From Escherichia coli (GTDB taxonomy: Bacteria; Pseudomonadota; Gammaproteobacteria; Enterobacterales; Enterobacteriaceae), in the NCBI RefSeq assembly GCF_016903815.1, contig NZ_CP069973.1: a DNA stretch of 64,000 nucleotides. One strand, written 5' to 3'. Each line of letters opens with the position of its first letter. The stretch's first letter is position 1. The notes beneath the pieces are model-generated. The model had not been told where the DNA came from and searched no databases. It saw nothing but the letters and a program-made list of their open reading frames with translations. The translations under genes and the position numbers were made by a program. This document shows positions 679 to 37,959 of the stretch, piece by piece.

Positions 679-788
679 AACAGGCTCGGAAAACGTTTGC
701 GCTTTTTTTGCCACAGGTCAATTCCCTTTTGGTCCGAACTCGCACATAATACGCCCCCGGTTTGCACACCGGGAATCCAGGAGAGTTC

Positions 789-1799
789 ATGTACTACCCC
801 TTCGTTCGTAAAGCCCTTTTCCAGCTCGATCCAGAGCGCGCTCATGAGTTTACTTTTCAGCAATTACGCCGCATTACCGGAACGCCGTTTGAAGCACTGG
901 TGCGGCAGAAAGTGCCTGCGAAACCTGTTAACTGCATGGGCCTGACGTTTAAAAATCCGCTTGGTCTGGCAGCCGGTCTTGATAAAGACGGGGAGTGCAT
1001 TGACGCGTTAGGCGCGATGGGATTTGGATCGATCGAGATCGGTACCGTCACGCCACGTCCACAGCCAGGTAATGACAAGCCGCGTCTCTTTCGTCTGGTA
1101 GATGCCGAAGGTTTGATCAACCGTATGGGCTTTAATAATCTTGGCGTTGATAACCTCGTAGAGAACGTAAAAAAAGCCCATTATGATGGCGTCCTGGGTA
1201 TTAACATCGGCAAAAATAAAGATACGCCGGTGGAGCAGGGTAAAGATGACTATCTGATTTGTATGGAAAAAATCTATGCTTATGCGGGATATATCGCCAT
1301 CAATATTTCATCGCCGAATACCCCAGGACTACGCACACTGCAATATGGCGAAGCGCTGGATGATCTCTTAACCGCGATTAAAAATAAGCAAAATGATTTG
1401 CAAGCGATGCACCATAAATATGTGCCGATCGCAGTGAAGATCGCGCCGGATCTTTCTGAAGAAGAATTGATCCAGGTTGCCGATAGTTTAGTTCGCCATA
1501 ATATTGATGGCGTTATTGCAACCAATACCACTCTCGATCGTTCTCTGGTTCAGGGAATGAAAAATTGCGATCAAACCGGTGGCTTAAGTGGTCGTCCGCT
1601 TCAGTTAAAAAGCACAGAAATTATTCGCCGCTTGTCACAGGAATTAAACGGTCGCTTACCGATCATCGGTGTTGGCGGCATTGACTCGGTTATCGCTGCG
1701 CGTGAAAAGATTGCTGCGGGGGCCTCACTGGTGCAAATTTATTCTGGTTTTATTTTTAAAGGTCCGCCGCTGATTAAAGAAATCGTTACCCATATCTAA
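789..1799 (+). CDS. pyrD: Dihydroorotate dehydrogenase (quinone)
   Basis: Translation [21 protein letters not shown]… matches PyrD; start moved to internal ATG at 789 preceded by GGAG; ORF track starts at 762. Confidence 0.95.
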
Positions 1800-5984: not shown

Positions 5985-7892
5985 ATGTCATTAATCAGTA
6001 TGCATGGCGCATGGCTGTCGTTCAGCGACGCGCCGCTTCTCGATAACGCAGAACTGCATATCGAAGATAACGAACGTGTTTGTCTGGTAGGCCGCAACGG
6101 CGCAGGCAAATCGACGTTAATGAAAATCCTCAACCGTGAACAAGGGCTGGATGACGGTCGCATTATTTACGAGCAAGATTTGATTGTAGCTCGTCTGCAA
6201 CAGGATCCGCCGCGTAACGTTGAGGGGAGTGTTTATGATTTCGTTGCCGAAGGCATTGAAGAACAAGCGGAATACCTGAAACGCTATCACGATATTTCGC
6301 GCCTGGTGATGAACGACCCGAGCGAGAAAAATCTCAACGAACTGGCGAAGGTTCAGGAACAGTTGGATCACCACAACCTGTGGCAGCTGGAAAACCGCAT
6401 TAACGAAGTGCTGGCGCAACTGGGGTTAGATCCTAACGTTGCGCTGTCGTCGCTTTCCGGCGGCTGGTTGCGTAAAGCGGCATTAGGACGCGCGCTGGTG
6501 AGCAATCCGCGCGTATTGCTGCTCGACGAACCGACTAACCACCTGGATATCGAAACCATCGACTGGCTGGAAGGATTCCTTAAAACCTTCAATGGGACGA
6601 TAATTTTCATCTCCCACGACCGTTCGTTTATCCGCAATATGGCGACGCGCATTGTTGATCTCGATCGCGGCAAGCTTGTGACCTATCCTGGGAATTACGA
6701 CCAGTACCTGCTGGAAAAAGAAGAAGCCCTGCGCGTGGAAGAACTACAAAATGCCGAGTTCGATCGCAAACTGGCGCAGGAAGAGGTGTGGATCCGCCAG
6801 GGGATCAAAGCACGCCGTACCCGTAATGAAGGCCGCGTACGCGCCCTGAAAGCAATGCGTCGCGAGCGTGGCGAACGTCGCGAAGTGATGGGTACCGCAA
6901 AAATGCAGGTGGAAGAAGCCAGTCGCTCCGGTAAGATCGTTTTCGAAATGGAAGACGTTTGCTACCAGGTTGACGGTAAGCAACTGGTGAAAGATTTTTC
7001 GGCCCAGGTTCTACGTGGCGACAAAATTGCCCTGATTGGCCCGAATGGGTGCGGCAAAACCACGCTGCTGAAACTGATGCTCGGTCAGCTTCAGGCGGAC
7101 AGCGGGCGTATTCACGTTGGCACCAAACTGGAAGTGGCTTATTTCGATCAGCACCGTGCGGAACTGGATCCCGATAAAACGGTGATGGATAACCTTGCTG
7201 AAGGTAAGCAAGAGGTGATGGTTAACGGCAAGCCACGCCATGTTTTGGGCTATTTGCAGGACTTCCTGTTCCATCCGAAACGGGCAATGACGCCGGTACG
7301 TGCGCTTTCTGGCGGTGAGCGTAACCGCTTGTTGTTGGCGCGTTTGTTCCTCAAACCAAGCAACTTATTGATTCTTGACGAACCGACCAACGATCTTGAT
7401 GTTGAAACGCTGGAACTGCTGGAAGAACTGATCGACAGCTACCAGGGCACGGTATTGCTGGTGAGCCACGATCGTCAGTTTGTCGATAACACCGTTACAG
7501 AATGCTGGATCTTCGAAGGCGGCGGTAAAATTGGTCGTTATGTCGGCGGTTATCATGATGCCCGTGGTCAGCAAGAACAGTATGTGGCGCTCAAACAGCC
7601 TGCGGTGAAAAAAATCGAAGAAGCCGCCGCGCCAAAAGCAGAAACTGTAAAACGCAGCAGTAGCAAACTAAGCTATAAATTGCAGCGCGAACTGGAGCAG
7701 CTACCGCAATTGCTCGAAGATCTGGAGGCGAAGCTGGAAGCCCTACAGACGCAGGTGGCGGATGCTTCCTTCTTCAGTCAGCCCCATGAGCAGACACAAA
7801 AAGTGCTCGCCGATATGGCTGCTGCAGAGCAGGAGCTGGAGCAAGCCTTTGAACGCTGGGAGTATCTTGAAGCGTTAAAAAATGGTGGCTGA
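5985..7892 (+). CDS. uup: ABC-F family ATPase Uup
   Basis: 635 aa with two Walker A boxes (GRNGAGKST, GPNGCGKTT) and two ABC signatures (LSGG). Confidence 0.9.
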   Translation: MSLISMHGAWLSFSDAPLLDNAELHIEDNERVCLVGRNGAGKSTLMKILNREQGLDDGRIIYEQDLIVARLQQDPPRNVEGSVYDFVAEGIEEQAEYLKRYHDISRLVMNDPSEKNLNELAKVQEQLDHHNLWQLENRINEVLAQLGLDPNVALSSLSGGWLRKAALGRALVSNPRVLLLDEPTNHLDIETIDWLEGFLKTFNGTIIFISHDRSFIRNMATRIVDLDRGKLVTYPGNYDQYLLEKEEALRVEELQNAEFDRKLAQEEVWIRQGIKARRTRNEGRVRALKAMRRERGERREVMGTAKMQVEEASRSGKIVFEMEDVCYQVDGKQLVKDFSAQVLRGDKIALIGPNGCGKTTLLKLMLGQLQADSGRIHVGTKLEVAYFDQHRAELDPDKTVMDNLAEGKQEVMVNGKPRHVLGYLQDFLFHPKRAMTPVRALSGGERNRLLLARLFLKPSNLLILDEPTNDLDVETLELLEELIDSYQGTVLLVSHDRQFVDNTVTECWIFEGGGKIGRYVGGYHDARGQQEQYVALKQPAVKKIEEAAAPKAETVKRSSSKLSYKLQRELEQLPQLLEDLEAKLEALQTQVADASFFSQPHEQTQKVLADMAAAEQELEQAFERWEYLEALKNGG

Positions 7893-14991: not shown

Positions 14992-15022
14992 AAAAAAACC
15001 CCGCAGCAGCGGGGTTTTTACC
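14992..15022. terminator. Bidirectional terminator between matP and ompA
   Basis: A-run, GC hairpin CCCCGCAGCAGCGGGG, T-run. Confidence 0.7.
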
Positions 15023-15032
15023 AGACGAGAAC

Positions 15033-16085
15033 TTAAGCCTGCGGCTGAGTTACAACGTCTTTGATGCCTTTAACTTCGATCTCTACGCGACGATCCGGAG
15101 CCAGGCAGTCGATCAGTGCAGCACGCTGTTTCACGTTGTCACAGGTGTTGCCAGTAACCGGGTTGGATTCGCCCATACCACGTGCGGAGATTTTGTCTGC
15201 CGGGATACCTTTAGAGATCAGGTAATCAACAACAGACTGAGCACGGCGCTCGGACAGACCCTGGTTGTAAGCGTCAGAACCGATGCGGTCGGTGTAACCC
15301 AGAACAACTACGGAACCGTCTTTCGGATCCAGGTTGCTCAGCTGGCTGTACAGCTGATCCAGAGCAGCCTGACCTTCCGGTTTCAGGGTTGCTTTGTTGA
15401 AGGTGAACAGAACGTCAGACTTCAGAGTGAAGTGCTTGGTCTGTACTTCCGGTGCCGGAGCTGGAGCCGGAGCAACTACTGGAGCTGCTTCGCCCTGACC
15501 GAAACGGTAGGAAACACCCAGGCTCAGCATGCCGTTGTCCGGACGAGTACCGATGGTGTGTGCGTCACCGATGTTGTTGGTCCACTGGTATTCCAGACGG
15601 GTAGCGATTTCAGGAGTGATCGCATACTCAACACCGCCAGCGAAGACCGGAGAAACGCCGGTATCGTGGTCTTTAAAAGATGCGCCACCAGGTACGTTAG
15701 CCTTGGTGTCTGCACGCCATACCATACCACCCAGACGAGTGTAGATGTCCAGATCGTCAGTGATTGGGTAACCCAGTTTAGCGGTCAGCTGAACGCCCTG
15801 AGCTTTGTATGCGCCGTTGATGTTGTCGCCTTTGTACGGCATACGACCTAACCAGTCGTAACCCATTTCAAAGCCAACATACGGGTTAACCTGGTAACCA
15901 CCAAAAGCACCTGCACCCAGTTGGTTTTCGTGGGTCGGACCATTGTTAGGAATAAAACCAGTGTCATGGTACTGGGACCAGCCCAGTTTAGCACCAGTGT
16001 ACCAGGTGTTATCTTTCGGAGCGGCCTGCGCTACGGTAGCGAAACCAGCCAGTGCCACTGCAATCGCGATAGCTGTCTTTTTCAT
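15033..16085 (-). CDS. ompA: Outer membrane protein A, variant loop allele
   Basis: [21 protein letters not shown] signal peptide, Ala-Pro hinge, C-terminal OmpA domain; loop segments differ from the K-12 sequence as I recall it. Confidence 0.95.
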
Positions 16086-16441
16086 TTTTTGCGCCTCGTT
16101 ATCATCCAAAATACGCCATGAATATCTCCAACGAGATAACACGGTTAAATCCTTCACCGGGGGATCTGCTCAATATTAACTCTACCGATATCTTCGGCTT
16201 ATGCCGAGCACCCCTGGCGATGTAAAGTCTACAACGTAGTTGAAAACTTACAAGTGTGAACTCCGTCAGGCATATGAAAAAAAAGTCTTGTATAAGGTAC
16301 GTTTAATCTTTTTTGTCAGCGACAATTTACAGAAGAAAATCGCGGAAACCGCTTCAGACAAGCCTCCGCAAGGAAAATTAGTCACGACTGAAAGCATTGG
16401 CTGGGCGACAAAAAAAGTTCCAGGATTAATCCTAAATTTAC

Positions 16442-27656: not shown

Positions 27657-27744
27657 TGGCGGAAGCGCAGAGATTCGAACTCTGGAACCCTTTCGGGTCG
27701 CCGGTTTTCAAGACCGGTGCCTTCAACCGCTCGGCCACACTTCC
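27657..27744 (-). tRNA. serT: tRNA-Ser (anticodon UGA)
   Basis: Reverse complement GGAAGTGTGGCCGAGCGGTTGAAGGCACCGGTCTTGAAAACCGGCG…GCGCTTCCGCCA; long variable arm, 3' CCA encoded. Confidence 0.9.
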
Positions 27745-36648: not shown

Positions 36649-37959
36649 ATGAAAGCGATCTTGATCCCATTTTTATCTCTTCTGATTCCGTTAACCCCGC
36701 AATCTGCATTCGCTCATAGTGAGCCGGAGCTGAAGCTGGAAAGTGTGGTGATTGTCAGTCGTCATGGTGTGCGTGCACCAACCAAGGCCACGCAACTGAT
36801 GCAGGATGTCACCCCAGACGCATGGCCAACCTGGCCGGTAAAACTGGGTTGGCTGACACCGCGCGGTGGTGAGCTGATCGCCTATCTCGGACATTACCAA
36901 CGCCAGCGTCTGGTAGCCGACGGATTGCTGACGAAAAAGGGCTGCCCGCAGCCTGGTCAGGTCGCGATTATTGCTGATGTCGACGAGCGTACCCGTAAAA
37001 CAGGCGAAGCCTTCGCCGCCGGGCTGGCACCTGACTGTGCAATAACCGTACATACCCAGGCAGATACGTCCAGTCCCGATCCGTTATTTAATCCTCTAAA
37101 AACTGGCGTTTGCCAACTGGATAACGCGAATGTGACTGACGCGATCCTCAGCAGGGCAGGAGGGTCAATTGCTGACTTTACCGGGCATCGGCAAACGGCG
37201 TTTCGTGAACTGGAACGGGTGCTTAATTTCCCGCAATCAAACTTGTGCCTTAACCGTGAGAAACAGGACGAAAGCTGTTCATTAACGCAGGCATTACCAT
37301 CGGAACTCAAGGTGAGCGCCGACAATGTCTCATTAACCGGTGCGGTAAGCCTCGCATCAATGCTGACGGAGATATTTCTCCTGCAACAGGCACAAGGAAT
37401 GCCGGAGCCGGGGTGGGGAAGGATCACTGATTCACACCAGTGGAACACCTTGCTAAGTTTGCATAACGCGCAATTTTATTTACTACAACGCACGCCAGAG
37501 GTTGCCCGCAGTCGCGCCACCCCGTTATTGGATTTGATCATGGCAGCGTTGACGCCCCATCCACCGCAAAAACAGGCGTATGGTGTGACATTACCCACTT
37601 CAGTGCTGTTTATTGCCGGACACGATACTAATCTGGCAAATCTCGGCGGCGCACTGGAGCTCAACTGGACACTTCCAGGTCAGCCGGATAACACGCCGCC
37701 AGGGGGTGAACTGGTGTTTGAACGCTGGCGTCGGCTCAGCGATAACAGCCAGTGGATTCAGGTTTCGCTGGTCTTCCAGACTTTACAGCAGATGCGTGAT
37801 AAAACGCCGCTGTCATTAAATACGCCGCCCGGAGAGGTGAAACTGACCCTGGCAGGATGTGAAGAGCGAAATGCGCAGGGCATGTGTTCGTTGGCCGGTT
37901 TTACGCAAATCGTGAATGAAGCACGCATACCGGCGTGCGCTCTCCATCAAGACAAATAA
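36649..37959 (+). CDS. appA: Periplasmic acid phosphatase/phytase; C-terminus differs from the K-12 sequence as I recall it
   Basis: [22 protein letters not shown] signal peptide; RHGVRAP histidine acid phosphatase motif; ends …[10 protein letters not shown]. Confidence 0.9.

Follow-up and report, generated by a model that had tools for sequence, protein, structure and literature searches.

Does the ompA gene in this part of the Escherichia coli chromosome encode a new protein with unusual surface loops, or a form that is already established in the species? The stretch of DNA analysed here (the window) is 64,000 nucleotides long, and a first-pass annotation made from its letters had described the gene as an ompA allele with a canonical barrel and periplasmic domain and with loops that diverge from those of K-12. 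The allele proves to be already known: it is a common one that has been catalogued, crystallised and studied for its function. The departures from K-12 are nonetheless real, and they raise the further questions of where the loop sequences came from and what they might do at the cell surface.

The gene and its departures from K-12

An ATG at position 16085 opens the ompA reading frame, which specifies a 350-aa product with the C-terminus ...VVTQPQA, and the RefSeq annotation places 'porin OmpA' (WP_000750418.1) of E. coli strain 222 at the same coordinates. A longer frame of 374 aa that begins with a GTG at 16157 was rejected, since the ATG at 16085 agrees with both K-12 and the RefSeq annotation. 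The gene and its domains are laid out as follows.

15033..16085, minus strand: ompA coding sequence, 350 codons plus stop (translation, RefSeq coordinates, Pfam, nucleotide identity)
16023..16085, minus strand: signal peptide, codons 1-21, equal to K-12 in the alignment, cleavage after residue 21 according to PMC9560509
15501..16022, minus strand: eight-stranded beta-barrel, residues 22-195, 100% identical to PDB 9FZD chain A, Pfam PF01389
15123..15410, minus strand: periplasmic OmpA-like (peptidoglycan-associated) domain, residues 226-321, PF00691

The first-pass reading of a canonical barrel and periplasmic domain was borne out by the Pfam matches: OmpA_membrane (PF01389) spans residues 23-199 and the full profile (1-180/180) with E = 1.2e-79, and the OmpA domain (PF00691) spans residues 226-321 with E = 8.7e-24. 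PMC9560509 gives the OmpA signal peptide as 21 residues, and residues 1-21, a predicted cleavable signal peptide on sequence grounds, match K-12 fully. The C-terminal domain matches the solved structures 2MQE and 4ERH, and the proline-rich hinge and both cysteines (C315 and C327) are unchanged relative to K-12. The neighbouring genes (ycbZ, matP, ompA, sulA, sxy and yccS) have the order and orientation found in MG1655, and the matP-ompA-sulA arrangement is likewise conserved in Salmonella. K-12 OmpA (ompA1, OmpA-short or I, alpha in the scheme of Liao; PDB 1BXW, 1QJP and 9FZC) thus occupies the same chromosomal position among the same neighbours.

Alignment with MG1655 OmpA (346 aa) shows 338/346 aligned residues to be identical, with eight substituted residues and one four-residue insertion. 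The positions that differ are listed below.

15948..15950, minus strand: loop 1, codon 46, CCT, proline (mature P25; asparagine in K-12; alignment)
15819..15827, minus strand: loop 2, codons 87-89, GAC AAC ATC, DNI (SVE in K-12; alignment and PMC5413513)
15669..15701, minus strand: loop 3, codons 129-139, ANVPGGASF(KD) (SNVYGKN in K-12; alignment)
15402..15404, minus strand: C-terminal domain, codon 228, ACC, threonine (mature T203; asparagine in K-12; alignment)

Position 25 is assigned to loop 1 (PMC5413513). The loop 2 substitutions are S87D, V88N and E89I in the precursor, equivalent to S66D, V67N and E68I in the mature protein. Loop 3 carries S129A, Y132P, an inserted GASF and N139D (mature S108A, Y111P and N114D), and the 12-nt insertion responsible lies inside the loop at ~15675-15686. 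Outside the loops, N203T is the sole difference from K-12 in the periplasmic domain, and the signal peptide, every transmembrane residue, loop 4 (GDAHTIG) and the hinge are the same in both proteins. Both peptide strings that the first-pass annotation had quoted are present in the 350-aa translation, and its statement that loop 3 is longer than that of K-12 is correct, by four residues; its more general claim that the loops differ from K-12 applies to loops 1, 2 and 3 but not to loop 4, which is unchanged in the pairwise alignment.

The 12-nt length difference from the K-12 reference might be taken as a sign of a damaged gene or of an assembly artefact, such as an indel error in loop 3. The indel is, however, in frame and leaves the open reading frame intact, the Pfam architecture is complete, hundreds of complete genomes carry the same sequence, and it has been possible to express, purify and crystallise the protein. 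Damage or artefact is next to impossible as an explanation, and a pseudogene or artefact is excluded by the intact frame, the full set of domains and the many identical genomes.

The crystal structure provides a close comparison. Over 174 residues (query 2-175, chain 3-176), all four loops included, the window protein is identical to PDB 9FZD chain A, which is the OmpA-long/Nb39 complex; the crystallised construct is the barrel alone, and the 100% identity therefore refers to the barrel and leaves out the C-terminal domain and residue 203. PMC12259851 gives the 9FZD sequence as the most frequent one of OmpA-long. Set against the K-12-type barrel 9FZC, the window barrel differs by exactly N25P, SVE66-68DNI and the loop 3 changes.

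Two features of the flanking sequence bear on how the gene may be transcribed.

16086..16199, minus strand: ompA upstream leader, 0 substitutions relative to K-12 in the 200-nt bin 16000-16199
14994..15019, minus strand: intrinsic-terminator-like hairpin, 11 pairs followed by a T run (hairpin scan, sequence)

The 114 nt directly upstream of the start codon hold no substitutions relative to K-12, and from what is known of K-12 we take the region 16086..16199 to be a putative 5' UTR. Expression of ompA is assumed here because this upstream region is conserved. With a simple sigma-70 consensus, no promoter-like site was picked up in the ompA-sulA interval on the strand of ompA, but such a crude scan says little either way; an Rfam scan of the whole window placed no curated RNA family in or adjoining ompA. 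Downstream, the GC-rich hairpin at 14994-15019, with A and T runs on either side, sits in the 74-nt spacer between the convergent genes matP and ompA; it resembles a terminator and could serve both. Three of the five terminator-like matches lie inside the ompA coding sequence and were set aside as chance.

Allele class, prevalence and lineage

The loops have been described under three names: ompA2 (Power 2006), pattern III with beta (Liao 2017) and OmpA-long (Commun Biol 2025). Pattern III is defined by P25, DNI in loop 2, ANVPGGASF in loop 3 and H in loop 4 (Liao 2017, PMC5413513), and the translation of the window gene has P46, D87-N88-I89, A129...F137 and GDAHTIG, which assign it to that pattern. 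Pattern beta, in the accompanying classification of linker and C-terminal domain, consists of A175, T203 and G251 in mature K-12 numbering (PMC5413513); the corresponding residues here are A200, T228 and G276, the offset being the 21-residue signal peptide plus the four-residue insertion, and the C-terminal domain is accordingly beta. I93, Y129 and M161 of the window protein fit pattern III/beta as well. The long loop 3, ANVPGGASF(KD), is both the site of Power's diagnostic PCR primer (PMC5413513) and the criterion for 'OmpA-long' (PMC12259851), and residues 129-139 are of this long type, which places the protein in the ompA2 / OmpA-long isoform.

Typing against the known ompA allele classes, as had been proposed at first pass, therefore gives pattern (III, beta) / ompA2 / OmpA-long with agreement at all diagnostic positions. 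The region is almost certainly an intact chromosomal ompA of the major long-loop-3 isoform, and nothing contradicting the identification was seen in the form of a frameshift, a premature stop or a mismatch to the pattern III/beta positions. A closely similar catalogued class is Liao's pattern II, to which Power's original ompA2 isolate B194 belongs: its loops 1, 2 and 3 are the same as those of the window allele, but it has N for H in loop 4 and L for M at 161, where the window allele has H and M. The sequences P0003, P0006 and P0015 carry the loop 4 N and L161 that mark pattern II. Power's ompA2 covers patterns II and III, according to Liao 2022 (PMC9560509).

The (III, beta) combination accounts for 3.8% of 78 isolates and pattern III overall for 14.1% (PMC5413513), and Power's PCR screen, as summarised in PMC5413513, found ompA2 in 43% of 524 isolates. 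In the present survey, just one of the 5,426 complete E. coli genomes lacked ompA, and the long loop-3 DNA, counted as at least 80% coverage of a 90-nt loop-3 probe, was found in 2063/5426 (38%), which agrees with the published 39-43%. Whole-gene identity to the window ompA is at least 99% in 460 complete genomes, and many complete E. coli genomes are 100% identical at the nucleotide level, including E. coli 7/2 and ST405 (phylogroup D) strains; in matches sampled evenly down the identity ranking, the second was still 100.0% identical. At least 1000 contigs encode the exact protein, which NCBI names 'MULTISPECIES: porin OmpA [Enterobacteriaceae]', and at 90% clustering the OmpA proteins of E. 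coli, Salmonella and Yokenella form one cluster. The long loop 3 is one of two major species-wide OmpA isoforms, and the allele is an ordinary one.

The wider window allows the strain to be placed. Strains 222, WCHEC96200 and KY 1497 are 100% identical over window positions 5000-29000 (24 kb) and 44000-64000 (20 kb); publications assign WCHEC96200 and KY1497 to ST405, and the former also to phylogenetic group D. Judged by these tested stretches, the source strain is indistinguishable from ST405 (phylogroup D) genomes.

Several other features were noted elsewhere in the window. The ends of appA (36649-37959, plus strand) and cspH (37947-38159, minus strand) overlap, and at their junction (37938-37946) a 9,055-bp segment of K-12 is missing, which holds IS1D and the group 4 capsule operon, etk-etp-gfcEDCBA; appA also ends in other codons than in K-12 and encodes 436 aa instead of 432 aa. 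The absence of this segment is a common presence/absence polymorphism, since 1669/5426 complete E. coli genomes match the junction with a coverage of at least 80%. Between torD and cbpM, 49464-50812 holds an IS3-family IS1397 transposase with a programmed frameshift, and in matching ST405-like genomes ∼10 places match this segment, consistent with a multi-copy insertion sequence. Rfam matches above the gathering score comprise a cspA-type thermoregulator leader at cspG (38289-38711, plus strand, 161 bits), a PyrD leader upstream of pyrD (721-794, plus strand, 97.9 bits) and a tRNA-Ser (27657-27744, minus strand), all of them expected for this chromosomal region.

Origin of the loop block

At the DNA level the window ompA differs from K-12 by 36 substitutions and the 12-nt indel, and 31 of the 36 substitutions fall within codons 44-154, which make up 31% of the aligned gene (binomial P = 9e-12).

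15624..15956, minus strand: divergent haplotype block, codons 44-154, with 31 substitutions and a 12-nt indel relative to K-12

The block contains 15 synonymous and 7 non-synonymous codon differences, and the remaining 239 codons just 4 synonymous and 1 non-synonymous. Divergence from K-12 rises from 0% over codons 1-43 to 9.7% over codons 44-154 and falls back to 0.9% over codons 155-350; the genes that flank ompA differ from K-12 by ∼1.2%.

The history of the block was examined against ompA from two Salmonella contigs and 29 usable sequences, one genome per species, from a DNA-pattern scan; a sequence entered the sample when it matched 47 nt at the ompA 5' end exactly, and the distances given are uncorrected and come from a small sample. 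Loop 2 DNI is common to E. albertii, two Escherichia sp., 4/4 Salmonella sequences, C. sedlakii and C. amalonaticus. E. albertii, C. sedlakii and two of the three C. amalonaticus genomes encode exactly the 12-residue loop 3 peptide of the window protein, and the loop 3 of Salmonella is equally long and closely similar in sequence. Loop 1 is more varied: S. enterica subspecies arizonae, diarizonae and houtenae have P, as does the window allele, whereas E. albertii has D, and C. sedlakii and C. amalonaticus have N. Loop 4 is mostly N in E. albertii, Citrobacter and Salmonella, where the window allele has H. The K-12 versions of loop 2 (SVE) and loop 3 (SNVYGKN) were absent from the 29 other-species sequences compared.

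These comparisons bear directly on the possibility that the allele is a novel, strain-specific product of recent diversifying mutation. Viewed from K-12 alone, intense local selection might be suspected, as loop codons lie two or three nucleotides away from their K-12 counterparts (CCT/AAC, AAC/GTT, ATC/GAA). However, the block combines 7 non-synonymous with 15 synonymous differences, a mixture that points to an old haplotype and not to recent point mutation, and an ompA identical at 100% in many independent complete genomes, or at 99% or more in 460, is hardly that of one strain. The exact protein is, moreover, spread over at least 1000 contigs, its loops have been published as pattern III / ompA2 / OmpA-long and crystallised, and its loop 2 and loop 3 peptides recur in E. 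albertii and Citrobacter. Recent mutation is accordingly an exceedingly improbable origin; prevalence, crystal structure and the presence of the loops in E. albertii and Citrobacter exclude a new strain-specific allele.

The ompA genes of E. albertii, Citrobacter and Salmonella show 3-10% nucleotide divergence from the window gene, in line with species distance. Divided between the block and the downstream part of the gene, the distances from the window allele are as follows.

E. albertii: block, codons 44-154, 3.3%; codons 155-350, 3.4%
Escherichia sp. E1V33: block, codons 44-154, 2.4%; codons 155-350, 2.9%
Salmonella: block, codons 44-154, 8.7-10.8%; codons 155-350, 9.4-10.4%
Citrobacter: block, codons 44-154, 6.6-8.4%; codons 155-350, 8.3-9.5%

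A divergence from K-12 that is limited to a ∼330-nt block with sharp edges, together with loop 2 and loop 3 peptides identical to those of C. sedlakii and C. amalonaticus, might be expected if recombination with a different genus, for instance Citrobacter or Salmonella, had recently brought in the block. Yet the block is about as far from both of these genera as is the rest of the gene (8.3-10.4%), and its distance to other Escherichia species is just 2.4-3.3%, once more as in the remaining codons. It is instead the K-12 block that lies 8.4-13.7% from every sequence compared, other Escherichia species included, although the rest of the K-12 gene is only ∼3% from other Escherichia species. Recent import into the window lineage is thus very unlikely.

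By these distances the window block follows the species tree, as would be expected under vertical descent. Because the K-12 block is far from all of the sequences and the window block tracks the species tree, K-12 is the outlier among the sequences compared, and not the window allele. The description of the allele as 'divergent' in the first-pass annotation consequently holds with respect to K-12 but is reversed among related species, where the K-12 loops are the divergent ones. The K-12 block would have been imported long ago, or it would represent an alternative lineage maintained over a long time. A fuller account, to which we give an even chance, is that the short/long dimorphism is ancient: the long form would be the ancestral, vertically inherited one, and the K-12 short block (SVE / SNVYGKN) would either have been imported from a donor outside the compared Escherichia, Salmonella and Citrobacter or have been under balancing selection since before the radiation of the genus.

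A third deep loop class, AHNNVTG.SEKN, was encountered in Escherichia sp. MOD1-EC7003 (L035; ompA from locus position 7454). Its OmpA has D in loop 1, DNI in loop 2 and KAHNNVTGVSEKN in loop 3, the last resembling the loop 3 of Liao's pattern V (AHNNVTGESE). Against either E. coli block, long or short, its codons 44-154 diverge by ∼10%, compared with 3.4-3.9% for the remainder of the gene.

Recognition by phages, antibodies and nanobodies

Loop variants of OmpA decide infection by Gp38-type phages (PMC12032242). Earlier work, as cited in PMC12032242, names residues 25, 70, 110 and 154 as those whose alteration abolishes the phage-receptor function of K-12 OmpA, and variant positions of the window allele lie at or beside three of these four (25, 70 and 110). 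When eight natural OmpA variants were compared in one MG1655 background, broad-range phages with type 1 Gp38 infected 8/8, and narrow-range phages with type 2 Gp38 infected variants 1, 3 and 4 only; the authors attribute type 2 infection to loop 3a or 3b in combination with loop 2a, and the modelled contacts for variants 1, 3 and 4 include E89 of loop 2 (PMC12032242). The window allele has I89 in place of E89 and a long loop 3, and it is predicted from its sequence to be refractory to type 2 Gp38 phages because E89 is lost and loop 3 is different. Reduced phage sensitivity has also been attributed to ompA2 (Power 2006, as relayed in PMC9560509 and PMC5413513).

Nanobodies discriminate between the isoforms. 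Nb39 binds OmpA-long and not OmpA-short, Nb01 does the reverse, and both touch all four loops, loop 3 extensively (PMC12259851). Because its barrel is identical to the crystallised antigen, there is strong reason to expect that the window OmpA would bind Nb39, and it should not bind Nb01. Effects beyond binding have been reported for alleles placed in MG1655 delta-ompA, which altered surface charge, hydrophobicity, biofilm formation and sensitivity to neutrophil elastase; the seven isogenic alleles of Liao (PMC9560509) include (III, gamma) and do not include (III, beta). In our reading, the literature supports a functional effect of loop variants on phage and antibody recognition.

A plausible mechanism can be proposed on this basis. 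OmpA-specific phage adhesins, antibodies and nanobodies bind the tips of loops 1-3 (P25, DNI66-68 and the long loop 3), so that the allele would alter which of these can attach while the structural role of OmpA would be unchanged. Both isoforms may have been kept over the long term by phage or immune selection, as the literature suggests.

It might be argued that the loop differences are neutral and merely follow phylogroup history. OmpA patterns do track phylogroup (PMC6995065), and patterns I and II performed equally in a corn-stover attachment assay (PMC5413513). Neutrality is, however, difficult to reconcile with nanobodies that bind one isoform and fail wholly on the other (PMC12259851), with narrow-range Gp38 phages that infect a subset of variants in a single genetic background (PMC12032242), or with the changes in charge, hydrophobicity, biofilm and elastase sensitivity among isogenic alleles (PMC9560509); the variant positions at or beside phage-receptor residues 25, 70 and 110 (as cited in PMC12032242) also speak against it. 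Neutral loop differences are very unlikely, and an effect of the loops on recognition is the preferred reading.

The practical value of the result lies in typing: the strain carries OmpA-long of pattern (III, beta). It is predicted to be stained and captured by Nb39 and not by Nb01, and it probably escapes type 2 Gp38 phages and would still be open to broad-range ones. The set of loop epitopes that it presents to antibodies and to OmpA-based vaccines would differ from that of K-12. K-12 OmpA, the basis of most structural and phage-receptor work, is atypical among the related species compared, and the window allele is close to the form that those species share.
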